Positions 1,652 through 57,071 of a stretch of DNA of 64,000 bases are shown one piece after another. The stretch spans positions 64,207-128,206 of the forward strand of contig JBEKIW010000001.1 in NCBI GenBank assembly GCA_050011565.1. The letters are read 5' to 3'. Numbering within the stretch: the first letter of the stretch is position 1; every line of letters begins with the position of its first letter. Source of the DNA: Dehalococcoidia bacterium (GTDB lineage: Bacteria; Chloroflexota; Dehalococcoidia; GIF9; UBA5629). Made by a program: the position numbers and the translations under genes. Below the pieces are notes generated by a model. That model did no database searches. It had not been told where the DNA came from and saw nothing but the letters and a program-made list of their open reading frames with translations.

Positions 1652-4255
1652 CTATTTGCCGCAGCAGTGCTTGTATTTTTTGCCTGAGCCGCAGGGGCAG
1701 GGTTCGTTGCGGCCGACTTTTTTACCGGCGGGAACGGCGACTTTTTGAGGCTGCCTTTGGGCCGGAGCTTCCTTCTTTTGGATGGTGACCGTGAATATAT
1801 TGTGGACGACATCATGTTGTATGCCGGCGATGAGGCTCTCAAAAAAGGCGTGGCCTTCTTTTTTATAGACGACTATGGGTTCGATCTGCCGCATAGCATA
1901 TAGGCTAGCTTGCTGGCGCAGATGGTCCATTTCAGTTAGATGGTCTTTCCATAAGCTGTCGATGGAGCGCAGCATAACCAACCTCTCCACAATGCGCATG
2001 GTATCCGAGCCTACTTCTGCCTCTCGCTGCTCGTATAGCTGTCCAGCGTATTCGATAAGCTTTTCAGCGATTTCATTGGGTCTCATCTGTGAGAGCGATT
2101 TGGGATTTATATCCGGTGGTACAGTAAAGATGGTGGATAGCTCTTCGATTAAGCCGGTAAAGTCTGATTCCATAGCGTCATGGCTGCAACTGGCGGCTAC
2201 CAGTTTTTCGATTTCCGCACACACCATGGATAAGATATTTGACTTGAGGTCAGCGCCTTCCAGGATTTTCCTTCGCTCGGCGTAGATTACCTCGCGGTGC
2301 TTGTTGACCACGTCGTCAAAATCAACGAGGTGCTTGCGAATGTCGAAATGGTAGCCTTCTACCTTAACCTGGGCGTTCTCTATGGCTTTGCTGACCATAG
2401 AATGCTCGATGGGCGTGTTCTCGTCGAAGCCAGCCCAGTCCATGAAGCCTTTAACGCGGTCGCCGCCGAAGCGACGAACGACGTCGTCTTCCAGTGAAAC
2501 GTAGAAGCGGGAACTGCCGGGGTCGCCCTGCCTTCCGGAGCGGCCGCGTAGCTGGTTATCGATACGCCTGGCTTCGTGGCGCTCGGTGGCGATGACATGC
2601 AAACCGCCAAGCTCGATTACTTTATCGTGCTCTTTCTGCCATTCTGTCGCGTCGCGCTCGGCAGGAATACCACCGAGTATGATATCGACACCGCGCCCGG
2701 CCATGTTGGTGGCAACGGTAACGGCACCTACGCGGCCGGCCTGGGCTATAATTCCGGCTTCTTTCTCATGTTGTTTGGCATTGAGTATCTGGTGGGGTAC
2801 GCCTCTTCTTTTAAGCAGGTCGCTCAGAAGCTCGGATTTTTCTATAGAGACGGTGCCTATGAGTACCGGCGTACCCTGCTGGTGCAGATTTTCAATCCCC
2901 TTGGCAACAGCTTTGAATTTGGTTTCTTCGTCCTTGTAAATCTGGTCCGGGTTATCCATGCGAATCATCGGTTTATTGGTGGGTACAACGACCACTTCAA
3001 GCTTGTAAATTTTGTGAAATTCTTCGGCTTCGGTGGCGGCGGTGCCGGTCATACCCGCCAGTTTCTTATATAGACGAAAATAGTTCTGAAAGGTGATGGT
3101 AGCCAGGGTTATGCTCTCCCGCTGGATTTTGACCCTTTCCTTGGCTTCGATGGCCTGGTGCAGCCCTTCTGAGTATCTCCTGCCGAACATGAGCCGCCCG
3201 GTGAACTCGTCGACGATGATGACCTGTCCGTCTTTGACCATGTAGTCGCGGTCTTTCCTGAACAGCACGTAGGCTTTCAGTGCATTTTCGAGGTATTGAG
3301 TTAAGCTGTAGTTAGCCGGGTCATAGAGGCTGGGAGCTTTAAGCAAGCCATCATGACGCAGCCATTTTTCCATTTTGGTCATGCCAGAGTCGGTGAGATA
3401 GGTCTGGCGTTCTTTTTCTTCAACGGTGTAGTCCTCATCTTTTTTGAGCTGAGGAACCAGGCGGGCGAAGGTGTAGTATTTTTGAGCGGCTTCTTCGCCA
3501 GTGCCGCTGATAATAAGCGGAGTGCGGGCTTCATCGATGAGTATGTTATCCACCTCGTCGACGATGGCGTAATTTAGCGTGCGCTGGACGCATTGAGACA
3601 GGTCTATAGCCATGTTATCTCTGAGGTAGTCGAAACCAAACTCATTATTAGTGCCGTAGGTTATATCAGCCGCATAGGCTTGACGGCGGGTGACGGGACG
3701 GAAATGGGGCCACCGGGTGTCTTTTTCACTCGTGTAATCAGGGTCATAAATGAGGGCGGGTAGTTGGTCGGTGGGGCCCTGTGTCGGGTAGATACTGGCG
3801 ACCGTTAAGCCAAGAGCATGATATATAGGGCCCATCCAGTAGGCGTCTCGCCGTGCCAGGTAATCGTTAACGGTAACCAGATGGCAGCCCTCGCCCGTAA
3901 GTGCATTCAAGTATAGAGGTAAGGTAGCGACCAGGGTTTTACCCTCGCCGGTCTTCATCTCGGCAATTTTGCCCTGGTGAAGAACCATGCCGCCCATAAG
4001 CTGCATATCGAAGTGGCGCTCACCTATAGTACGCCTGGAAGCTTCTCTGGCGGCAGCGAAGGCTTCGGGCAGTATGTCATCAAGCGTCTCGTTGTTTTTT
4101 AGTCGGCCTTTAAGCTCATCGGTCTTGGCACGAAGTTCAGCATCACTGAGCTTCTGAAAGTCTGGCTCGAGCGAATTTATCTGGTCGATAATGGGCTCAA
4201 GGCGTCTCAGTTCTTTTTCGTTGGAGTCGGTAAGGCTACCTAGCCACTTAAGCAT
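1652..4255 (-). CDS. secA: preprotein translocase subunit SecA
   Basis: 867 aa. DEAD-like motor motifs, preprotein cross-linking domain, C-terminal zinc-binding [14 protein letters not shown]. Confidence 0.97.
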
Positions 4256-46954: not shown

Positions 46955-47296
46955 ATGCCTAGATCTAAATCTGGACCTAAACCAAAAGCTGAACTTGAAC
47001 TCAGGCCCAAGCCTAAGCTTAGCCGCAAGCGTAGACCAAAAACTGAGTTTGAACTCCTACCGAAGCCTAAGCTTAGCCGCAAGCGTAGACCCAAGCCGAG
47101 AAGCTGGCGGGTAGCGCTTCTCCTGTCTCTTTTCCTTGGGCCATTCGGGGCGGACCGTTTTTACATCGGAAGAACTCGCTCGGCGGTTCTTAAGCTCGTT
47201 ACCTTAAGCTGCTTTGGTGTCTGGTGGCTGACTGACTTTGTACTTATCGCCGGTGATTGGCGGCGGGATGCCTGGGGCCGGCGGCTGAAGCATTAA
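46955..47296 (+). CDS. TM2-domain protein with N-terminal PKPK tandem repeat
   Basis: LGPFGADRFYIG...WWLTDFVLIA is a TM2 domain. N-terminal 17-aa tandem repeat encoded by a 51-bp DNA repeat. Confidence 0.7.
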   Translation: MPRSKSGPKPKAELELRPKPKLSRKRRPKTEFELLPKPKLSRKRRPKPRSWRVALLLSLFLGPFGADRFYIGRTRSAVLKLVTLSCFGVWWLTDFVLIAGDWRRDAWGRRLKH

Positions 47297-47340: not shown

Positions 47341-47416
47341 GGGGCTGTAGCTCAATCGGGAGAGCGTTTGACTGGCAGTCAAAAGGTAGTGGGTTCGAAT
47401 CCCATCAGCTCCACCA
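47341..47416 (+). tRNA. tRNA-Ala (anticodon GGC), CCA encoded, G3:U70 identity pair
   Basis: Manual cloverleaf: acceptor GGGGCTG/CAGCTCC, D arm GCTC-AATCGGGA-GAGC, anticodon stem TTTGA/TCAAA with loop CTGGCAG, T arm GTGGG-TTCGAAT-CCCAT. Confidence 0.85.
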
Positions 47417-48399
47417 ATAACCCTTCTGAAGCTAACATCAATTCAAATCACCTTTCGACTAGCCAAGATTCTTACACGCAATTAGATATCCCATTACACC
47501 GTTTGATTGAAGGATTTCTGTTATCCTGTAAGGTAGAAAACAAATCTCCAGCAACTATATCCTTCTATAAAAATATCCTGGATAAGTTCCAATGGTTCTT
47601 AACCAAATTCGGGATTAATACTATCGACGCCACAACGATAAGAAGCTTTCTCGGATACCTTAAGGATACAGCCAGTAGATGGGATAGTAACAACACACGT
47701 GCAAATAGGCCGGTATCGCCAACAACGGTTAAGAGCTATTACATTGGTCTATCTGCATTATTTACCTGGGCTATGGAAGAAGAGTTGATACAGGTTAATC
47801 CGATGGCGAATGTAAAGAAACCTAAGCTACCTAATAAAATAGTTAAAGGTTTAGAATCTGAAATCATAATAACATTGCTAAACGCATTTAGTGGTCGAAG
47901 CTTTAATGATCTGCGTAATAAGGCTATGCTTTTAATGTTTCTGGATACTGGCTTAAGGTTATCTGAACTTGCAGGTCTGACTTTATCTGATATCAATATT
48001 GAGAAAGGCATCATCAAAATCATTGGTAAAGGCAATAAAGAAAGATACGCTAGAATAGGAGTCAAGACACAGAAAGCATTATGGAATTATTTAGCTCATA
48101 GACCAGTAGAAAAGGAGTATGTATGGTTGGGAAAAGGCTATTGTAAAATGACAGTAGATGGCATTGCTCTGGTTATTCGAAACTTGGGTAAGAGATTAGG
48201 GATTAGATTATCACCGCATAGGTTGAGACATAGTTTTGCTATTAGCTTCTTAAGAAATGGAGCTAATCCATTCGAGTTACAGATAGCGTTAGGGCATACC
48301 ACATTGGAAATGACCAGGAGATACACTCAAGCATTAGGATTTGACGATGTGTTTAAGAGACATGTGTTGGCTAGTCCGGTGGATAGATTGATGCATTAG
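47368..48399 (+). CDS. tyrosine recombinase / phage-type integrase (intact copy). True start is downstream of the tRNA and uncertain
   Basis: Core-binding and catalytic domains (HRLRHSFAISFLRNGANPFELQIALGHTTLEMTRRYTQ). Track ORF start lies inside the tRNA, so the start is probably non-ATG near 47490. Confidence 0.85.
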   Translation: MTGSQKVVGSNPISSTNNPSEANINSNHLSTSQDSYTQLDIPLHRLIEGFLLSCKVENKSPATISFYKNILDKFQWFLTKFGINTIDATTIRSFLGYLKDTASRWDSNNTRANRPVSPTTVKSYYIGLSALFTWAMEEELIQVNPMANVKKPKLPNKIVKGLESEIIITLLNAFSGRSFNDLRNKAMLLMFLDTGLRLSELAGLTLSDINIEKGIIKIIGKGNKERYARIGVKTQKALWNYLAHRPVEKEYVWLGKGYCKMTVDGIALVIRNLGKRLGIRLSPHRLRHSFAISFLRNGANPFELQIALGHTTLEMTRRYTQALGFDDVFKRHVLASPVDRLMH

Positions 48400-48547
48400 G
48401 GTACGAGGCGGTGGAGAGTAATAGGAAGTGTGGGCTGGTGGATATACTAAAATGAATTTTGTTTAATGTCTAAAGATGGCTTTCGCTGGGGGACCTTGAA
48501 CCTCATATTAACAGACTATGCGGCAATCGATGCCCTGGAATTAAGTT

Positions 48548-48703
48548 ACCTCGCCTGAAAGTGCCCTGCGCAATGTCTTATTTCCACATTTTGGACAAGG
48601 GGCTTCTTTCACTAGTTTCCCCTTAGGAACAGCAACTTTGCCTTTAAAATCACAGTTCCCGCAAACGACTGCTTCTTGATAAGTTTCATCGCTCACTTCT
48701 CTA
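48548..48703 (-). CDS. small zinc-ribbon protein (~51 aa, CGNC...CPKC)
   Basis: Manual translation (GTG)SDETYQEAVVCGNCDFKGKVAVPKGKLVKEAPCPKCGNKTLRRALSGEVT, preceded by aggagatag. Below track cutoff. Confidence 0.35.
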
Positions 48704-48893
48704 TCTCCTTGCCTTGGTCATAAATATTATATCATACTGATAATATCATTCCAGTGTCGATCGCTTTGTTAGCCCGAATGTATTACTCTAGATGAGTGCC
48801 AATTCAAAACCCAGATTTTTACCACCCGTATTGCACAATAGAAACGTTCTAGATCTTCATGACTTCTTGGCTATCCCCAGGCCTCCGATTCAG

Positions 48894-49364
48894 CTATCTA
48901 TTATTTGAGGTTCCCTTAAGGAATTTTCTGAATATGATGAAGGGACTTGCGAAAACAATAGTGTATATAATCGCTGGAATCCACCAATATCCATTAGCTG
49001 CAAAACAACTTAAGATTATTCCTGTAATAAATAGCAAAAGTCCGACTATAAAAACTATACAGGCAATGATTTTATTGCCTTCTTCAAACCACAAGAAACC
49101 TTCGAATATAAAAATAAGTGAAAAACTTGATATTTGTAATGCTGGCGTCTGTTTAATTTCTGATTTCGTGGCAAGGAATATCAAAGCAACCGCAATAATA
49201 ATGGTTCCATACATTAGAACAACTCTACTAAACAGTCTTCTCGTATTCCACCATTTGCGGGATTGGAATAAAAAAATAATACCAATACCTATTATGGGTA
49301 GTTTAGGAGCAATAAGTGTTAGCCCGTTTATAAATAGTGTTAGCCCGTTTATCAACTCTGCCAT
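48894..49364 (-). CDS. AT-rich multi-TM membrane protein of unknown function (island cargo)
   Basis: 156 aa, four hydrophobic segments. Preferred over the overlapping plus-strand ORF 48859..49404. Confidence 0.45.
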   Translation of the reverse strand: MAELINGLTLFINGLTLIAPKLPIIGIGIIFLFQSRKWWNTRRLFSRVVLMYGTIIIAVALIFLATKSEIKQTPALQISSFSLIFIFEGFLWFEEGNKIIACIVFIVGLLLFITGIILSCFAANGYWWIPAIIYTIVFASPFIIFRKFLKGTSNNR

Positions 49365-49493
49365 TTCTGTTACCTCTATATTTGAGGCTATCCCAAATTG
49401 TTAAGTATGTCCCGTTTATTTCATTTTGAATGTATTTGTCTATAGTTAACCTTGGTTAAGTAATTACATATATATAGTTCAGGTCAGGATGAC

Positions 49494-49610
49494 CAGCGAT
49501 TACTTGGACATACAACATTGGAAATGACTAGGAGATATACACAAGCATTAGGTTTTGATGACGTGTTTAAGAGGCATGTGGTAGCGAGTCCCGTGGATAG
49601 GTTGTTGTAG
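49494..49610 (+). pseudogene. integrase 3'-terminal remnant (last ~38 codons)
   Basis: ...LGHTTLEMTRRYTQALGFDDVFKRHVVASPVDRLL* is near-identical to the C-terminus of the intact integrase. Confidence 0.7.
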
Positions 49611-49793
49611 GACTGGTTTTCGGGGGCAGGTCACCTACTTCTTGTCTCCTTTGCTCTTCCCCTTTTGCGCGTCGGCATACTTATTTTTATGCTCGTTCTT
49701 GGGATGCTTTTTCTTATTACGCTTACTCATCGTCTTACTCCTCTATCCAGAAAAATACGATAGGTCACTCATTCCGTCATTTATTATATCACT

Positions 49794-50210
49794 ATGGCTG
49801 ATATTGACATTAAAAGAGGAATCATTAAGACAGTAGGTAAAGGCAATAAAGAAAGATACGCTAGAATAGGCGTAAAGACACAGAAAGCCTTATGGAATTA
49901 TCTAGCACATAGACCAGTAGAAAAGGAGTATGTATGGTTGGGAAAAGGCTATGGTAAAATGACCAAGGATGGCATAGCTCTAATGGTACGGAATCTCGGT
50001 AAGAGATTGGGTATGAAGTTATCACCACACAAATTGAGACATAGCTTTGCTATTAGCTTCTTAAGAAACGGAGCTAATCCGTTTGAGTTACAGATAGCAT
50101 TAGGGCATACTACACTGGAAATGACCAGGAGATATACTCAGGCATTAGGGTTTGATGATGTGTTTAAAAGACATATAATAGCATCACCGGTGGATAGACT
50201 GGTTAAATAG
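49794..50210 (+). pseudogene. 5'-truncated integrase (catalytic C-terminal half only)
   Basis: 138 aa aligning to residues ~205-343 of the intact integrase; N-terminal core-binding domain absent. Confidence 0.75.
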
Positions 50211-50327
50211 CTTTGATAGTCCCTAGTGTAGAATGCTCTAGGGACTATCGACTCACACATTTGTTTTTAGGCTACAGATTAAGTTAAAACGTGTGGTTAA
50301 AAAAGCCTTAAGTTGAAATTCTTGTTG

Positions 50328-50513
50328 TTAGACGGTCTTATCTTCAATTGCGGCTGAAGGTGCATCCTTCTTGACGGATTCTATCCCGTTTTTTGCATTC
50401 TCCTTGGTCGTGTATCCTTCACCCGAATTCGCAATCATTTGTCCATTGGATGCAATTAGTCTCCATCGAATTTCACCTTTTTTGTCTTTGAACAATTCAA
50501 ATTTCGCTGTCAT
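50328..50513 (-). CDS. DUF1508 (YegP-like) domain protein
   Basis: ELFKDKKGEIRWRL...GEGYTTKENAKNGIESVK pattern typical of YegP/DUF1508. Confidence 0.6.
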   Translation of the reverse strand: MTAKFELFKDKKGEIRWRLIASNGQMIANSGEGYTTKENAKNGIESVKKDAPSAAIEDKTV

Positions 50514-51216
50514 GACATTTACCTCCTATCTTTATTATTAAAGAGATACTAGCAGAGTCAGGTAGTGGGTCAATTTGAATCTGAAAAATTCTAACTCAAA
50601 TTGTGCGATGCTACACTGGCTCAATAAAGTAACTTCAAAGTGCCTTTATGAAATCAGTTGCGATAAAATCCAGAACGCTAATCCTAGGGCTATTAGGTTT
50701 ACCTTATTCCAAATGTTAATAGTTGCTATGATGAAACAGACTAGCCCAAGTATCAGTAGGATTGTTGTTATCATAATTTCTCCTTTTTCTGCGATTCAAT
50801 GTCAAGACTCTTCCTTAACCCACGGGTCTTCAACTATTAAGTGAATACTAGCAGAGTGAACATGTAGAAGTAATATAATCGAGGCACGATATGTTAAATA
50901 GTTATGATATTTATAGCGTCATCGGCGGATTGATTGATGAAATGACAGGACGGAGGTAATTCCAATGGGCCTATTTGTGCACCAAATGCAAGAATCTTGG
51001 TGTTAGGATACTGGTACGCTCAAATGGATGAGAAGGGAAAAGTGTTGTTTAATACACCTTATAATAAAGGGGTAATAGCGTTACGATGGAAAGGGTATAA
51101 CTAGCGGTGGCAGGAATTGGAACATCTCAGCCAGTGGGGAGATATCATAAATTGAATACACCGCTGACATACCTGCTATAATGCTAATTTAAGCGAATTT
51201 AATACGGAGGTCAGAC

Positions 51217-51563
51217 ATGGGAAGCAAAGGAAGAAAGAACGAGAAAAAGCCTAAGAAGCAAGTAAAAGCGAAGTCAGCAGCGAAGACACCGGATAAGACA
51301 GAACGAAAGAAGAGATAATAGTCCCGCTAGAAGGCAGGATTAGCGATATCGGCGATATAGAGCGTGTAAACATCAAACCAGGCTTGCGGGTTTCAATCGT
51401 AATAAAGGCAGATCAACGATCCGGAAAACTAACCGAAGGGATAGTCAAAGATATTTTGACACGCTCTCCGGTTCATCCGCATGGCATCAAGGTTCGCTTA
51501 GAAAACGGTCAAGTTGGGCGAGTCAAAGAGATAAAAGCTAAAGGTCTTTCTCCGCCGAGCTAG
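51217..51563 (+). pseudogene. lysine-rich peptide (33 aa) followed out of frame by a YwbE/DUF2196-like domain; possible frameshifted fusion
   Basis: MGSKGRKNEKKPKKQVKAKSAAKTPDKTERKKR* in one frame. RVNIKPGLRVSIVIKADQRSGKLTEGIVKDILTRSPVHPHGIKVRLENGQVGRVKEI in the +1 frame without its own start. Confidence 0.4.
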
Positions 51564-51607
51564 CTATGTGACGTGTCCATAATAAGTGTACCATTTTTCG
51601 TTGGCCC

Positions 51608-51871
51608 TCACCCCAAAAATTGAACACCACCATTCATTATTGACCTGAGTTTACCTTCTCTTGTAAGCCTCTTAATTCTATGCTCCATTTTAGAGGCGAG
51701 CGATTTATCTTCATAATCCCACTTCCTGAGTAATTTAACAGGTCTTCTTCCTCTGGTATACTTAGAACCAATCCCTAAATTGTGCTCTCTTATGCGCTTA
51801 ACAATATTATTGCTGATACCTGTATAAAGAGTTCCGTCACTGCACTCGACTATATAAACGTACCAGGCCAT
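51608..51871 (-). CDS. GIY-YIG nuclease-domain protein (UPF0213-like)
   Basis: YVYIVECSDGTLYTGISNNIVKRIREHN. Confidence 0.8.
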   Translation of the reverse strand: MAWYVYIVECSDGTLYTGISNNIVKRIREHNLGIGSKYTRGRRPVKLLRKWDYEDKSLASKMEHRIKRLTREGKLRSIMNGGVQFLG

Positions 51872-51918
51872 TCTATTTTCCTTCAGCAGCTCTTACCTGT
51901 AATTATAACGCCTTCAGG

Positions 51919-51958
51919 TTGTGGCCGTGGCTAGTCCGGTGGATAGGTTGATACGTTA
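51919..51958 (+). pseudogene. integrase 3' remnant (last ~12 codons) followed by the conserved post-integrase sequence
   Basis: VAVASPVDRLIR*. Downstream gatgcggtggaggc...ggtggctgggttgagg resembles the sequence after the intact integrase stop (gaggcggtggagag...ggctggtgg). Confidence 0.5.
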
Positions 51959-52113
51959 GACTATGATGCGGTGGAGGCACATAAGAGATTTAGTCCGGTG
52001 GCTGGGTTGAGGTAACAGCGGGATGGAGTAGGTTAAACATACCTATTGACTTTTTATAATCAGGCTAGTAAAATGCTGAACGTAAAAAACTAATAATTAA
52101 GAGGAGGTTATTT

Positions 52114-52479
52114 ATGGTCAAAACTTGGGGATGGATCAGTTTCATACTATTTTGCCTTGGCGTCATACTAGCTGTTGTCGGAGGTTTAGTATTTCCAGAG
52201 AGCATAGTCATTGCATTAATACTTGTCATTTTCGGCCTTATAATCGGTATTATACATGTCAGTATTGACAAAGAAGGAAAAGGACTGGTTATTCTGCTCC
52301 TGGCCACGATAGCAATATTGGCAATGACGGCTGCCTTTTCTCCGGTTACATTTTTGGGCTTCGGTAAAATGGCGGCCAGCATATTAGTAAATTTTGCCGC
52401 GTTAATGGCACCTGTGGCCCTCGTCGCTGCAATAAAGGCGCTGCTGCAACTATTCCTCGGACCACAAGTTAAAATCTAG
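52114..52479 (+). CDS. four-TM membrane protein of unknown function
   Basis: Strong RBS aagaggagg. Hydrophobic 121 aa. Confidence 0.55.
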   Translation: MVKTWGWISFILFCLGVILAVVGGLVFPESIVIALILVIFGLIIGIIHVSIDKEGKGLVILLLATIAILAMTAAFSPVTFLGFGKMAASILVNFAALMAPVALVAAIKALLQLFLGPQVKI

Positions 52480-52623
52480 CTAGTCTTAAATCAACAAGAC
52501 TAGATTGTCATTCATCTGAGACAGGTCGCTTTTACTTAAGTGTGAAAGATGGCCTGTCTCATTATTATTGACCACGTACGCGAGGTTTTCAAATAAGCGA
52601 GAACAGGCAGGTGTTGTATTTAG

Positions 52624-52677
52624 ACTGTTTGATTAGGAGTCAAAAGGTAGTGGGTTCGAATACCATCAGCTCCACCA
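52624..52677 (+). repeat. direct repeat of the tRNA-Ala 3' half (anticodon stem to CCA, degenerate loop): island junction attR-1
   Basis: gtttgattaggagtcaaaaggtagtgggttcgaataccatcagctccacca vs tRNA gtttgactggcagtcaaaaggtagtgggttcgaatcccatcagctccacca. Confidence 0.7.
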
Positions 52678-52823
52678 GACAATCCTATGAAGTTATTCCA
52701 AATTTAGATATCTTTCCATACTACCGAATTCCTACCCATATCGCGTCACTAGTTTGTATTATAATATTATATACGTTATATACGCCGCTTATTATGGTTG
52801 GTATGAAATGTTGAGGACACGCT

Positions 52824-54068
52824 GTGCCTAAGATTCCTGACCTGGTCAATGGTTTCAAGATGCTGAAGGAGGTGGACCTGAATACGGTCCGCGCGCAGGC
52901 TGAAATACCCCTGCATGTCATGGTTATCGGAGAGGCCGGGACAGGTAAGACTGCGCTGGTCGAACAGTTACTTGTCGGGCCAAGGTCGGAAGGGCCTCCG
53001 GATTTGGTCTCCATTACCATGTATCGGCCAGACCTGAATCTGCAAATTCCGGATAATACGCTGGTATTGCTGCTTCTGGATGTTAGGAAGACCGACCTTC
53101 AAAACGAGCGGGCAATCTTTGACAGGCTCATTGGCAGGAAGATAGCGACGGTCGTCTGCTACAACAAATCATATCTGGCCCGCGAAGAAAACCTTACGCT
53201 GAACAGATCAATCTGGACTGGTGCCGAGACGGCTGTTATTACCGCCACCGACCGCGATACGCTGATGCGCGAGCTTGTACCTGCCATCTTACGCGTGTGC
53301 AAAGGCCGTGAGACCCGGTTAGCCCGTCACCTGCCGATGTTACGTGCGCCGGTCGCGCAAAAGCTGATTGACGACACCTGCTTTATCAATGCTACCTATA
53401 GCCTGAGCACCGGCCTGGCGGAGATAGTGCCTATACTGGACCTGCCGCTGAATTTAGCAGATATCGTTATATTGACTAAAAACCAGGCTTTGATGGCGTA
53501 CACCATTACGCTGGCCATGGGAATGCAGGCCGAATGGCGCGATACCATGCCCAAATTAGCGGCTGTGGTTGGATCAGCCTTTCTCTGGCGGCAACTAGCC
53601 CGTTATCTGGCCGGCCTCATACCAGTCATCGGCATCGTGCCAAAGGTAGTGATCGCCTACTCGGGAACCTACGTGATTGGCGAAGCTGTTTACCAGTGGT
53701 GCGCCAACGGCGAGAAGCTCAATCCGGAGGAATTAAAAGTTCTCTATGCTGAGGCCTTGAAGCGTGGCAGTGAGGTTGCCAGGGTGCTGATCGCGAAAAG
53801 GGGTGCAGCTCAGTACCAGGCGGCCGACAAATTCAAGGAGATAGCACAGCTCATCTCTAAGAGAAGCACCACTACTCAGGAGCAGGCCTCCAGCAGGTTT
53901 CAGGCGGTTATGTCCTTCATTGCCCGAAAAAGCCAGGATACACGTGAGCAAATTTTTTCTATTGCTGATAAAGTGTTCCAACCGGGGACTGCCTGCTTGG
54001 CTTGCGGCAAGAAGTCGCCCAAAGGTGCGGGCTTCTGCGCTTTCTGCGGCAAACCCCTGAATTCCTGA
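52824..54068 (+). CDS. P-loop NTPase-like domain + DUF697 (YcjF-like) domain + C-terminal double-CxxC zinc ribbon
   Basis: VMVIGEAGTGKTALVEQLL (Walker A), NKSY (G4-like). LAAVVGSAFLWRQLARYLAGLIPVIGIVPKVVIAYSGTYVIGEAVYQW resembles DUF697. CLACGKKSPKGAGFCAFCGKPL. GTG start. Confidence 0.6.
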   Translation: MPKIPDLVNGFKMLKEVDLNTVRAQAEIPLHVMVIGEAGTGKTALVEQLLVGPRSEGPPDLVSITMYRPDLNLQIPDNTLVLLLLDVRKTDLQNERAIFDRLIGRKIATVVCYNKSYLAREENLTLNRSIWTGAETAVITATDRDTLMRELVPAILRVCKGRETRLARHLPMLRAPVAQKLIDDTCFINATYSLSTGLAEIVPILDLPLNLADIVILTKNQALMAYTITLAMGMQAEWRDTMPKLAAVVGSAFLWRQLARYLAGLIPVIGIVPKVVIAYSGTYVIGEAVYQWCANGEKLNPEELKVLYAEALKRGSEVARVLIAKRGAAQYQAADKFKEIAQLISKRSTTTQEQASSRFQAVMSFIARKSQDTREQIFSIADKVFQPGTACLACGKKSPKGAGFCAFCGKPLNS

Positions 54069-54141
54069 CGGGCGTCAGCATCAGTTGGCACAAACCGGAT
54101 TACATATGGAGAAAAGTATGACAAAAATGGTTTTGATCGAA

Positions 54142-54187
54142 ACTGGCAGTCAAAAGGTAGGGGGTTCGAATCCCATCAGCTCCACCA
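54142..54187 (+). repeat. second direct repeat of the tRNA-Ala 3' half: distal island boundary attR-2
   Basis: actggcagtcaaaaggtagggggttcgaatcccatcagctccacca; 45/46 identity to the tRNA 3' part. Confidence 0.7.
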
Positions 54188-54246
54188 AAGCGTGCCGCGT
54201 CTGTTGCCTTTGACACACCCATGATTGAACAGAATTATCTGTATTA

Positions 54247-55302
54247 CTATTTCGTCATATTATCAATAATAGCCCTGCCGGCGTACTTGCCTTCGTCCAA
54301 CTCCTCGAGTACCTGGCTGATTTCCGATAAGCTGGCAACTCTACCTACGTGAGTTTTTACTTTACCATCTGCGGCCAATTGAATTAATTCCCTCATTTCT
54401 TCTACTGTACCCACTGCCGACGACATTATAAGAGGGTCTCTGCCTAATAGTTCCAACGGCATTATCGATATTGGCCCTTCGCTCACGGGAGGCATTCCCA
54501 CTCCGACAAATACTCCTCCGCGCCTCATTAATTTTAATCCGAGTTCAAAGCCAGCTATCTTTGGTGAAAATGCGATGCTGGCGTACACGCCGCCGAACTT
54601 CTCCTTGACGAATTTTTCGGCTTCGCTTATATCCACGGCGTAGTCGGCACCCAGGCTCTTCACGAATTCTATTTTGTCCTGCCCTACATCGACTCCGACG
54701 ACTTTATACCCGAATGCCTTGGCTGTCTGTACTGCGTAGTGCCCGAGCCCACCCGCCGCACCGATAATAGCTACCGGCTTACCCGGTAAAACGCCGAATT
54801 TGATTAGTTTTTTGACGGCGCTGTAGGCTGTTAAGCCGCCGCATGCCAGCGGGACTTCTCTGTCGCTTACTTCCTCAGGTAGTTTTACCAATGATTTTAC
54901 CCAAACTGAAATGTACTCAGCATAGGCGCCGATAATGCCCTTAGTCTGTTTGCATAGCCTGGGCCTGCCACTGAGGCAATATTCACAAGCACCACACCAG
55001 TATCCTCCTCCTGAGCCACCGAGACCCAATATAACCCTATCGCCTTTCTGTATGAATTTCTCTGCTCCTGTACCTAACTCCTCGACTATCCCTATGCCTT
55101 CATGACCCATCGGCATCGGAATTGGTGGGAGAAACCCGGGCCAATCCCCTTTAACCAAATGTACATCCGAGTGGCAAACGCCTGCGGTGGTAATCTTGAC
55201 CAGGGCTTCTTCGTGCCCGGGGGTGGGTTTAGGTATATCTTTAATAACTAATTTACCGTCGGCTAGGAAAACTGCGCGCATATTTGTCTGCCTCCAACAC
55301 AC
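54247..55302 (-). CDS. zinc-dependent alcohol dehydrogenase (MDR family)
   Basis: GHEGIG zinc motif, GxGxxG Rossmann. Confidence 0.88.
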   Translation of the reverse strand: MCWRQTNMRAVFLADGKLVIKDIPKPTPGHEEALVKITTAGVCHSDVHLVKGDWPGFLPPIPMPMGHEGIGIVEELGTGAEKFIQKGDRVILGLGGSGGGYWCGACEYCLSGRPRLCKQTKGIIGAYAEYISVWVKSLVKLPEEVSDREVPLACGGLTAYSAVKKLIKFGVLPGKPVAIIGAAGGLGHYAVQTAKAFGYKVVGVDVGQDKIEFVKSLGADYAVDISEAEKFVKEKFGGVYASIAFSPKIAGFELGLKLMRRGGVFVGVGMPPVSEGPISIMPLELLGRDPLIMSSAVGTVEEMRELIQLAADGKVKTHVGRVASLSEISQVLEELDEGKYAGRAIIDNMTK

Positions 55303-55501
55303 TATTCAATAACGGAATTATACCATTGGCTCAGGTACAGATGTCTGCCATTTTCTGTAGCCAATTGTACTCCTTGGTCAGGAGGTGTCAAACAAGGGGC
55401 AGAGGTTAAAGCAGCGCCAGACTGACGATTGTTCAGGTAATACGATTGCTCTATAATTGAGCTGCGTCAGTAATCTTAAATGAATGGAAGAGGAGTAAGC
55501 A

Positions 55502-56185
55502 ATGGCTTCTGTGAAAGACGTATTGGACAAACTCCAGAGCAAAGCCAGGCCAGACCAGTTGGCAGGAATGGCTAAATTCGGGATAGCAATTGAAGGAAGA
55601 TTAGGGGTATCGGTTCCTGATATGAGGAAACTGGCGAAGGAGATAGGGAAAGACCACAAGCTGGCGTTAGAGTTGTGGAAGACGGGGATAGCTGAGGCCA
55701 GGATGGTGGCGGCGATGGTTGATGACCCGGATAAGCTAACTGAAGAGCAGATGGAGGACTGGGTGAAGGACTTCAACTCCTGGGATGTCTGCGACCAGGT
55801 GTGCATGAATCTTTTCGAAGAGAACAGATTAGCCTGGAAGAAAATTATCGATTGGTCTGTGCGGAAAGAAGAGTTCGTCAAGAGGACTGCCTTTTCGCTA
55901 ATAGCCTGTCTGGCGTGGCATGACAAGAAGGCGAACGATGAGAAATTTATCGAATTGCTACCGGTAATAATACGAGGAGCCACGGACGAGCGTAACTTCG
56001 TCAAGAAAGCAGTCAACTGGGCTCTTAGAAACATAGGTAAAAGGAATCTCAACTTGAACCAAGCTGTAATAGATGCTGCAAAGGAAATCCAGCGACTCGA
56101 TTCGAAGGCTGCTCGCTGGGTTGCCTCCGATACTCTCCGGGAACTACAGAGTGAAGCTGTCCAGGCCAAGCTCAGAAAAGGTTGA
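55502..56185 (+). CDS. DNA alkylation repair protein (AlkD-like HEAT-repeat glycosylase family)
   Basis: N-terminal pattern of PF08713-type proteins. Confidence 0.75.
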   Translation: MASVKDVLDKLQSKARPDQLAGMAKFGIAIEGRLGVSVPDMRKLAKEIGKDHKLALELWKTGIAEARMVAAMVDDPDKLTEEQMEDWVKDFNSWDVCDQVCMNLFEENRLAWKKIIDWSVRKEEFVKRTAFSLIACLAWHDKKANDEKFIELLPVIIRGATDERNFVKKAVNWALRNIGKRNLNLNQAVIDAAKEIQRLDSKAARWVASDTLRELQSEAVQAKLRKG

Positions 56186-56255
56186 GGTCGTAGCCTTGAC
56201 TGAGAGGCGGCTGCGTGCTAACTTTCGTAAGCATTCACACTAAGGAGGAAAACAG

Positions 56256-57071
56256 ATGAACTTATCCAAGATATCTATGAAGGGCAAGGTGGCGTTGGTC
56301 AGCGGAGCCAGCCGAGGCATCGGTGAAGCCAGTGCCCTGGCTTTCGCCAGCGCCGGCGCCGATGTGGTGGTCGCCAGCCGGAAGCTGTCTGACCTGGAGA
56401 AGGTGGCCGAGAAGATAAAGGCTAAAGGCGTGAGAAGCCTGGCAGTGGCCGCCCATGTCGCCAAGATTGAAGACTCGAAGAATCTGGTCAACACGGTGGT
56501 AAAAGAATTCGGCCGGATTGATATTCTGTTCAATAATGCCGGTACGAATCCCTATTTTGGACCCCTGCTGGATGCCGAGGAGTGGGCTTGGGACACGACC
56601 TTTAACGTTAACCTGAGAGGTCCTTTTTTCCTGGCACAGCTGGTAGCCAGGGTAATGAAAGAGCAGGGTGGCGGCTGTATGATCAATACCGCCTCAGTGG
56701 GTGCTTTAAGGGCCAGTGACCTCGCTATTTACAGCGTCACCAAGGCAGCCTATGTCATGCTGACTCAGGTCATGGCCAAGGAATGGGGCCAGTGGGGCAT
56801 CAGGGTAAATGCCATTGCACCGGGGATAATAAAGACAAAACTCGCCGAAGCGCTGTGGAAAGACCCGGCAGCGGGCAAAGCTGCAACGGAAAGAATTGCG
56901 CTGCTTCGCCTGGGTGAACCGGAGGATGTAGCCGGCGTCGTTCTTTTCCTCGCCTCCGACCTGGCTAAATACGTAACCGGCGAGACCGTCGTCGTGGATG
57001 GGGGCCAGATGCTTGGAGCGCCATCATTCCGTGGTGGGAAAAGCAACCCGGTCGCCGAGTTAGGAATATAA
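56256..57071 (+). CDS. short-chain dehydrogenase/reductase
   Basis: TGGSRGIG, NNAG, YxxxK. Confidence 0.88.
   Translation: MNLSKISMKGKVALVSGASRGIGEASALAFASAGADVVVASRKLSDLEKVAEKIKAKGVRSLAVAAHVAKIEDSKNLVNTVVKEFGRIDILFNNAGTNPYFGPLLDAEEWAWDTTFNVNLRGPFFLAQLVARVMKEQGGGCMINTASVGALRASDLAIYSVTKAAYVMLTQVMAKEWGQWGIRVNAIAPGIIKTKLAEALWKDPAAGKAATERIALLRLGEPEDVAGVVLFLASDLAKYVTGETVVVDGGQMLGAPSFRGGKSNPVAELGI

Follow-up and report, generated by a model that had tools for sequence, protein, structure and literature searches.

A probable tandem array of small integrative elements at the tRNA-Ala(GGC) gene of an uncultured Dehalococcoidia bacterium

The window analysed here comprises 64,000 nucleotides (nt) of DNA from a Dehalococcoidia bacterium (GIF9; UBA5629), positions 64,207-128,206 on the forward strand of contig JBEKIW010000001.1 in assembly GCA_050011565.1. 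The host is an uncultured peat Dehalococcoidia, and the same 20 kb is found base-identical in three public peat or soil metagenome assemblies. The region downstream of the tRNA-Ala(GGC) gene in this window is probably (at about 0.78) a tandem and partly eroded array of small integrative elements, accreted at the 3′ half of this single tRNA gene. Comparison loci and contigs from related genomes and metagenomes are given L numbers (L004, L113, and so on).

The tRNA-Ala(GGC) gene (47341-47416, + strand) is the only copy, and it is both the integration target and the left attachment site (attL). Its anticodon loop, CTGGCAG, is located at 47372-47378. An intact tyrosine integrase gene (int) follows at a distance of 87 nt, and ARAGORN, Rfam (tRNA, 69.5 bits) and Pfam agree with the initial annotation on this arrangement. 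A 40-nt segment of the tRNA 3′ half (AGTCAAAAGG...CCACCA) has three occurrences on the + strand, at 47377-47416 (0 mismatches), 52638-52677 (1 mismatch) and 54148-54187 (1 mismatch), and no match at all was obtained in 100 shuffles. The two downstream repeats that had been reported are therefore borne out by alignment of the copies.

The two downstream copies differ in their preservation. Copy 3 matches the tRNA from the anticodon loop onward (54142-54187), with the same CTGGCAG loop. It forms the right end of the array (attR, 54108-54187, + strand), with a P-arm carrying GGAG at 54108-54111, an in-frame ATG at 54118, the loop at 54143-54149, and the tRNA 3′ half extending to 54187. The P-arm is 89% similar to the attachment (att) arms of L054 (954-1025) and L046 (15443-15505). 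In copy 2, the anticodon arm is still recognizable from about 52622-52628, with the loop TTAGGAG in place of CTGGCAG. The internal att junction at this position (52611-52750, + strand) consists of the P-arm of the preceding module (mem121, see below), the degenerate arm TTTGA-TTAGGAG-TCAAA, the tRNA 3′ part from the T-arm to the acceptor end (up to 52677), and a truncated vestige of the spacer that normally lies upstream of int. No integrase follows this junction. From the position at which identity to the tRNA starts in at least seven independent attR-type sites, the crossover (overlap) region is inferred to be the anticodon loop itself, CTGGCAG at 47372-47378.

Copy 2 divides the array into islet 1 and islet 2, and the change from AT-rich to GC-rich DNA described earlier is confirmed. 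The GC content is 37.6% in int and 39.8% in the remainder of islet 1, up to about 52.6 kb, and 51.4% in islet 2, with 49-50% in the flanks. A history without mobility, in which the tRNA region and the integrase gene were duplicated locally and then decayed, would account for the fact that every repeat is direct, on one strand and within 7 kb. However, the blocks between the repeats are unrelated to one another and differ by 12 GC points, they are common piecemeal to other species at identities above those of core DNA, and the right arms belong to families that are located at element ends in many other contigs. Such a local origin is hardly credible.

Serial integration would proceed as follows. 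The elements would belong to one family, moved by a Xer-like tyrosine recombinase with a core of 298 amino acids (aa) that acts in or beside the anticodon loop, where the 5-bp inverted stems and the 7-nt loop of the anticodon arm may mimic a simple core site. Each integration would restore the tRNA and push the old 3′ half downstream, leaving tRNA 3′ fragments as dividers. The layers in the window would then be, from the tRNA, int with a zinc-ribbon gene (i); three cargo blocks, each headed by a 5′-truncated int whose upstream att site is gone (ii-iv); an islet encoding the 414-aa protein P414, bounded by att sites and without an integrase, like a cis-mobilizable element (CIME) (v); and, probably, an older block with an alcohol dehydrogenase (ADH) gene (vi).

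Three integrase 3′ remnants are found in islet 1, all in the same orientation as the intact gene, as had been noticed at the outset. The longest (49794-50210, + strand) is a 138-aa open reading frame (ORF) for residues 159-297, with a Pfam E-value of 8e-21; at the nucleotide level, it is 84% identical to the intact gene. This remnant has lost the N-domain and the first catalytic Arg. The second (49494-49610, + strand) covers residues ~260-297 with 85% nucleotide identity, and no att site is present upstream of it. The shortest (51919-51958, + strand) retains the last ~13 codons, is followed by a conserved post-stop repeat to 52005, and is at the head of the mem121 module. A related post-stop sequence had been described for every integrase end. 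This is correct for the intact gene and for the 51.9-kb remnant (48368-48441 against 51928-52001, 76% identity, motif GCGGTGGAG..N..AGTCCGGTGG), but the tails of the 49.6-kb and 50.2-kb remnants are unrelated. The fragment at 49794-50210 has instead a hairpin-type post-stop sequence, with no relation to that of the intact gene.

The same pattern is observed across the integrase family. In a metagenome scan that gave 79 loci, C-terminal remnants (51 after deduplication) outnumber both full-length genes (20) and N-terminal pieces (13). The element strand carries all of them, and a single array can hold up to five remnants (L044, L092). The longest integrase copy is the tRNA-proximal one in the arrays examined. 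The 5′ limits of the remnants are scattered over the whole gene, and many are very short stumps.

One internal-deletion allele of the tRNA-proximal integrase recurs in this family. It consists of the leader to CGTTTGATT, ~110 nt of other DNA, and then residues 243-297, and it is found in L005 (10968-11335), L089 (100-466), L113 (3332-3699), L087, L090, L091, L093, L094, L096, L098 and L104 (core 86-90%). This shared allele is apparently an old or horizontally spread dead copy.

The integrase copies also have consequences for assembly. Short-k-mer assemblies break at the att repeat (L114) and at the stretch common to the integrase copies (L003), and many public contigs of this family are for that reason only 1-4 kb, which leaves the arrays under-assembled in metagenomes. 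The contig L003, which ends inside int (at window position 48054), was considered as population variation and rejected, as the break is within 47980-48279, repeated at 49791-50090 (84% overall). This repeat holds an exact shared run of ~35 nt (by eye), enough to break a k-mer assembly. The same caveat applies to L114 (1530 nt, with the same att sequence at both ends), which does not count as evidence of a circle.

The surroundings of the tRNA gene in relatives provide support for serial integration. Species-representative genomes were scanned with the VTT-domain protein encoded just upstream of the tRNA, which gave 30 loci, all in metagenome-assembled genomes of Dehalococcoidia/Chloroflexota. 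The left flank, ClpC-VTT-(TM2)-tRNA-Ala(GGC), is kept in the 30 loci, and synteny stops at the tRNA. The downstream genes of the window are found within 10 kb of the tRNA in none of the 30 related loci. In the TM2-domain protein gene, two tandem 54-nt copies (46978-47085, 85% identical) encode an N-terminal repeat region whose length varies among relatives.

The comparison for an empty site, which had been proposed as a check, shows different fillings between kept flanks. In L089, the tRNA-Ala is followed by 5.1 kb of unrelated filling and then by AlkD-SDR at 90%; in L113, it is followed by 6.5 kb of other genes, the P414 unit, other genes again, and AlkD-SDR-ACH. The right flank of the window is 90.3% identical to L089 (5237-6734) and 85.5% identical to L113 (13370-18318). 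This conserved flank (55440-57071, + strand) begins with the AlkD promoter region, followed by AlkD (55502-56185) and SDR (56256-57071). As it starts near 55440, the variable zone spans 47417 to about 55440 and takes in the ADH gene. The initial interval, ending at 54187, is thus correct for the end of copy 3 but not for that of the variable zone. The closest relatives, L004 and L005 (core nucleotide identity to the window of 90.1% and 88.0%, respectively), also have different DNA after the tRNA, with single blocks in common.

These common blocks are more similar than the genomes that carry them. The zinc-ribbon and mem121 modules are 97.6% and 98.7% identical to those in L005 (core 88.0%), the DUF1508 module is 96.1% identical to that in L004 (core 90.1%), and islet 2 is 96.3% identical to that in L113 (core 85.6%). 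The integrase region has 83.6% identity to L018, for which the core has only 68%. The match between the islet 2 unit (52638-54189) and L113 (9815-11366) starts inside one tRNA copy and stops at the end of the next. The left boundary of the L113 unit is an intact att site with a CTGGCAG loop, and its right-hand partner is the same as that of copy 2 in the window. Moreover, the left-hand partner of copy 2 is also found at L005 17826, joined there to different DNA, and another left-hand partner is common to L005 17100 and L004 11690. The comparison supports separate histories for the modules, which have been exchanged between species. The break of synteny at the tRNA, the module identities above core identity and the bounding of islet 2 by tRNA copies support the serial integration and layered history that were first proposed. 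Of the description as an active hotspot, the hotspot stands, but activity is not indicated: no difference in the array is seen between three assemblies, and copy 2 has lost the match of its loop to the tRNA.

The same data bear on an alternative in which the array accreted in other genomes and the whole 6.8 kb, from the tRNA loop to copy 3, was integrated here once, as one composite island. The loops of the tRNA and copy 3 are identical, and there is a full right arm with a Shine-Dalgarno (SD) sequence and ATG, so that the element is formally complete. The internal sites are degenerate or deleted, the array is unchanged in the three assemblies, and tandem islands have been described as co-mobilised at ssrA in Dehalococcoides (PMC3146451), all as would be expected for a single arrival. 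On the other hand, L113 holds the P414 islet at the same chromosomal position, with different DNA between the islet and the tRNA and an intact att site at the left boundary, and L089, L004 and L005 have further different fillings. As the P414 islet of L113 has other DNA to its left, units are argued to have been added and replaced at this locus. A single arrival is on balance unlikely, and it is the most serious competitor to stepwise accretion.

A different view of the exchanged blocks is that the system works like an integron. Cassettes would be captured by a resident enzyme, the Xer-like integrase next to the tRNA; the short single-gene blocks would be these cassettes, shuffled singly, and the degenerate cassette sites would be anticodon-arm-like sequences (TTTGA-N7-TCAAA-AGGTA) together with the int 3′ end and its CGGTGGA repeats. 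This proposal is improbable. There are indeed blocks of 0.5-1.5 kb bounded by arm-like sites with varied loops, at which partners are swapped (L004, L005, L077, L079, L089, L094). About a dozen independent junctions are located within 3-7 nt of TCNCCGGTGGATAG, junction sequences recur in L039, L041, L059 and L082, and the Xer and integron-integrase group includes relatives of the enzyme. However, a lenient motif scan with true tRNAs removed gave 28 hits on the + strand against 24 on the − strand, and clear cases are found only in the clade nearest the window; the anticodon-arm-like motif was rejected as a general cassette boundary, and because it is not generally enriched this view is kept as a minor rival. 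In addition, no arm-like sites are present between the first four blocks of the window, remnant boundaries are spread over the whole integrase gene, there is no constraint at the DNA level in the int 3′ end, and the cargo genes are in both orientations. The loops differ between sites, which should block exchange by a tyrosine recombinase, and AT-biased decay of old att sites would explain them. Consideration was also given to loop variation as specificity 'barcodes', and this was set aside for the simpler explanation of GC-to-AT decay in DNA of 38% GC and survival of dead sites. Finally, the integrase reads into the array, the internal sites are degenerate tRNA arms or absent, and the NCBIfam integron-integrase model gives 54 bits against a cut-off of 265.

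In the integrated state, the open frame of int begins at a TTG within the anticodon stem and extends over 343 codons (47368-48399, + strand). Its conserved, Xer-like body (47503-48399, + strand) has 298 aa and all the catalytic residues (the translation shows R, K, HxxR, H and Y), with a Pfam Phage_integrase E-value of 1.3e-31 and SAM-like N-domains. The best NCBIfam matches are XerA_Arch, XerD and XerC. Assignment as a XerC/XerD/XerA chromosome dimer resolvase was rejected, since all scores are under the family cut-offs (171 against 220 for XerA, 150 against 330 for XerD, and 150 against 335 for XerC). Gene callers give 343-aa integrase products for this gene, extended into the tRNA gene; this routine stretching of the integrase into the tRNA is of practical concern for annotation.

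The 86 nt between the tRNA and the integrase body (47417-47502, + strand) would encode an N-terminal leader of Int rich in S, T and N (...NSYTQLDIPLHR). Of 33 loci, 32 have an uninterrupted int frame across both this spacer and the tRNA 3′ half. The spacers of 32 loci contain no stop in the int frame, compared to 55 and 75 in the other two frames. The entropy at the three codon positions is 0.65, 0.39 and 0.90, highest at the third, and 33% of the codon differences are synonymous in the int frame, compared to 17% and 4% in the shifted frames. The open frame and this coding-type variation indicate that the spacer is translated, and the start must therefore be located at or beyond the tRNA half.

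Candidate starts are found at the far end of the element. Seven right arms, of the attR type or at tandem junctions, combine a Shine-Dalgarno sequence with a start codon in frame, positioned 10 codons ahead of the codon AGT (7 codons in one case). These are AGGAGG-ATG in L035, L046 and L059, AGAGG-ATG in L054, AGGAG-ATG in L113, AGGAG-TTG in L037, and in the window GGAG (54108-54111), N6 and ATG (54118), 10 codons before AGT (54148). L037 (1506-2558) has the whole gene as a contiguous ORF of 350 aa, with AGGAG-N7-TTG. Independent gene calls in the databases give proteins whose N-termini read through the tRNA (MGERLTGSQKV...) and proteins with right-arm N-termini (MVTTLLKSTGSQKV..., MVTLCKQLTG, MSSVMTG and MIMLKTG). 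Comparison of these loci shows the attachment site of the free element (attP) to be inside the int ORF, with the att sequence apparently translated and the start signals left at the far end of the element upon integration.

In this layout, the ribosome-binding site, the start and ~8-10 codons would be in the right arm, and the enzyme body would be reached in the same frame after the core, the tRNA 3′ half (translated as GSQKVVGSNPISST) and the spacer. On integration, int would be parted from its translation start, which would be left at attR (54108-54141 here), and excision or a tandem junction would rebuild the gene. The tRNA-proximal int may as a result be poorly expressed, and hence tolerated intact. 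Downstream copies would be re-armed by the right arm of a neighbor and then lost by deletions that take the att site and the 5′ part of int. Such deletions of internal att sites would stabilize the arrays. One intact int with many 3′ stumps would follow from this state-dependent expression and the deletion of re-armed copies. As the loop is the same in the tRNA and in copy 3, which also has the SD and ATG, the whole 6.8 kb could still be excised as one unit, rebuilding an Int of ~350 aa. If integration uncouples the enzyme from its translation start, this would be a simple route to one-way gene capture in streamlined genomes, and a testable reason for the one intact integrase and the many 3′ stumps.

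The codon at Int residue 1 (window 47500-47513) is TTG in 34 of 34 homologous loci, and CGTTTGATTGAAGG around it is similar to the anticodon arm of the tRNA on its 5′ side (CGTTTGACTGGCAG). This TTG could be an internal start or a secondary half-site.

Several observations weigh against the accretion of mobile elements with a switched integrase, and they are collected here. Only the SD, the start and about 8-10 codons are detached from int by integration, and the integrated gene may not be silenced, because the invariant TTG (34/34) could serve as an internal start. The tRNA itself also holds a TTG, preceded by GGGAGAG (GGGAGAG-N-TTG). A promoter and terminator scan was not above shuffled expectation, and no promoter could be assigned. 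A strictly empty tRNA-Ala site was not found among the relatives examined, and no circle was seen. The three assemblies that are base-identical over 20 kb come from different samples, the internal site at copy 2 is probably dead because its loop, TTAGGAG, differs from that of the tRNA, and the array could have been assembled elsewhere and have arrived as one unit. There are no transfer functions among the genes of the window, and Int has no relatives in IMG/VR. The int 3′ end and the post-stop CGGTGGA repeats were also considered as selected arm-type binding sites, and this was rejected, as the synonymous divergence is 0.38 in the last 12 codons compared to 0.46 overall and 0.34 at the 5′ end; the Xer-like enzyme, without an extra arm-binding domain, counts against such sites as well. 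Because there is no constraint at the DNA level in the int 3′ end, the integrase stumps are read as deletion products and not as sites.

The cargo of the array is made up of small genes. The zinc-ribbon module (48400-48834) contains the post-stop repeat GGCGGTGGAGAG..GGGCTGGTGGAT (~48418-48455) and a gene for a 51-aa zinc-ribbon protein (48541-48696, − strand; weak match to Pfam Zn_ribbon_8). It corresponds to L005 15427-15891 at the 97.6% identity given above, is 90.6% identical to L004 11754-12180, and is present too in L057, L058 and L074. It is followed by a gene for a predicted membrane protein of 156 aa (48894-49364, − strand) with no family match. The DUF1508/HVO_2922-family small protein gene (50328-50513, − strand) is in a module (50040-51049) common with L004 at 92-96%. 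The next cargo genes encode a YwbE/DUF2196 family protein (51384-51563, + strand) and an 87-aa protein with a GIY-YIG domain (51608-51871, − strand). The mem121 gene (52114-52479, + strand) encodes a membrane protein of 121 aa with 100% aa identity in L005, and its module (51930-52632) matches L005 17130-17832.

Islet 1 also has two lysine-rich small ORFs. One of 31 aa (49635-49730, − strand) is gene-called in public assemblies (L001 12681-12776), and one of 33 aa (51217-51318, + strand) has a GGAGG ribosome-binding site and weak similarity to L004 15518-15630. The two look unrelated to each other. A conserved non-coding stretch of ~95 nt (ATTCCAA.GGCCTATTTGTGCACCAAATGCAAGAATC..., window 50959-51053) recurs in several arrays, often shortly 5′ of an integrase stump. 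It is also found in L004 (14291-14384 and 19743-19825), L005 (11353-11428), L090 (10854-10944) and L094 (10854 and 11624), and it has no Rfam match at the gathering score.

The cargo of islet 2 is P414 (52824-54068, + strand), a P-loop/DUF697-like protein that ends in a zinc ribbon at its C-terminus. Both att sites are kept in the P414 islet (52638-54187), where the spacer relic is present but no integrase. In Dehalococcoidia, P414 homologues make up a host-like, graded series; the L115 homologue has a similar upstream region, in ordinary surroundings that lack att sites. From these relationships, P414 looks like a host-like Dehalococcoidia gene captured with its own upstream region.

Beyond copy 3, the Zn-dependent ADH gene (54247-55302, − strand) belongs to the variable zone and is absent from L089 and L113, which have other genes there. 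Just beyond it, 55309-55345 resembles (by eye) a right-arm family, TTCGTAATGGAATRCCANTACCG, that precedes att cores in L004 (18274), L005 (14223 and 18727), L007 (15270), L079 (730) and L089 (5040). This segment is possibly a decayed att arm, a relic of a fourth, older unit. Profile scans of the window found no virion, lysis or replication domains of a prophage; a viral origin was rejected, as the search of IMG/VR for relatives of Int returned none. A PADLOC scan of the window for defence systems gave nothing meaningful.

The integrase has more than 2000 database relatives, essentially all in Chloroflexota. Among the 79 metagenome loci, the full-length homologues are all about 110 nt downstream of an intact tRNA-Ala(GGC). 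The attR-type identity with the tRNA starts at A/CTGGCAG in L034, L035, L037, L046, L054, L059, L090, L092, L113 and the window, and complete elements of 9.1 kb (L035) and 5.6 kb (L046) are found. Distant members of the integrase family (28-47% identity) are located in the same arrangement after tRNA-Ile(GAT) (L065-L068, L071) and tRNA-Lys(TTT) (L106), and a protein with 77% identity (P0022) reads through a tRNA-Ala(TGC)-like sequence. Target switching has, by these positions, apparently occurred within the family. On the minus strand of L082, three direct copies of the T-arm and acceptor end of another tRNA (GGTTCGAATCCAACCCCCGCTACCA) are found within 3 kb (at 3221, 3852 and 6017), which suggests that this contig has a second array of tandem integrations, at a different tRNA gene. 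The tRNA-Ala hotspot is thus kept across a broad set of uncultured Dehalococcoidia, with very small units swapped between species, captured host-type genes included.

Tandem accretion at tRNA-Ala is already known in Dehalococcoides. According to the sections of McMurdie et al. (2009, PMC2764846) drawn on here, the high-plasticity region HPR1 of Dehalococcoides mccartyi starts after tRNA-Ala-1 and has repeated tRNA 3′ fragments, four in BAV1 and two in CBDB1, with a recombinase gene directly after the tRNA-Ala and a truncated homologue beside a repeat. The window is alike in the bacterial class, the end of synteny at tRNA-Ala, the tRNA 3′ repeats and the recombinase after the tRNA. However, a 25-bp repeat and large islands with rdhA genes are described there, whereas the repeat here has 46 nt from the anticodon loop and the blocks of 0.3-1.6 kb carry small accessory genes. 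An int ORF crossing the att site is not mentioned in those sections.

The genomic islands at ssrA in Dehalococcoides are tandem, include integrase-less units and have grown by accretion (McMurdie 2011, PMC3146451), and accretion of CIMEs and integrative and conjugative elements has been described in streptococci (PMC5704250). These systems share with the array repeated site-specific insertion into the 3′ end of a gene for a small RNA, division by direct repeats, integrase-less units bounded by att sites (here the P414 islet) and possible co-mobilisation of neighbors. At ssrA, the recombinase is a large serine enzyme encoded on the opposite strand and the repeat, of 20 bp, is in the T-loop (PMC3146451), in contrast to the small tyrosine recombinase and anticodon-loop site here. 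The site agrees with the anticodon-loop class of tRNA-gene integration sites (Williams 2002, as summarised in PMC8371274; Islander database, PMC4383910). As far as these summaries describe it, that class, which is defined by position only, shares the block of ~46 nt identical to the tRNA 3′ end, the symmetric stem-loop core and the integrase beside the regenerated tRNA. With integrons, the array has in common a Xer-related tyrosine recombinase at a primary site, followed by short, mostly single-gene blocks. It differs in having no attC-like folded sites and no common promoter or orientation, and because the blocks carry integrase stumps they derive from whole elements, unlike integron cassettes.

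The closest likeness in gene layout is to the 'suicidal' SSV-type integrases of archaeal viruses and plasmids, which are associated with archaeal 'gene capture' (She et al. 2001; Badel et al. 2020, PMC7253208; review PMC8371274). Two reviews describe such integrases, which split their own gene, as exclusive to Archaea (PMC7253208, PMC8371274). In both cases, the integrase ORF contains the att site, which matches the 3′ part of a tRNA and is translated, the gene is divided between the element ends on integration, and integrase pieces and captured genes collect beside tRNA genes. However, the detached piece here is limited to the start and ~8-10 codons, whereas that of SSV1 comprises about 65 residues. 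Both domains stay on the large piece here, for which other starts may still allow expression, and the host is a bacterium. The likeness is one of layout, and the best profile matches here, among the Pfam and NCBIfam models scanned, are of Xer type.

A tentative extension, for which the odds are somewhat below even, is that Dehalococcoidia host a widespread bacterial counterpart of the SSV-type integrases, a gene-capture engine under the high-plasticity regions of the class. Small elements would insert at Ala-GGC, and those of sister clades at Ala-TGC, Ile-GAT and Lys-TTT, with int complete only in the circular or tandem state. Integration would switch the enzyme off, elements would be trapped, internal copies would be deleted, and captured genes, both host-like and accessory, would pile up 3′ of the tRNA. 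In comparison with the known systems, serial integration at tRNA-Ala is supported and is not novel in itself, whereas what appears to be new, judged from these sequences, is the int-across-att layout in a bacterial lineage, together with the very small and widely shared units.

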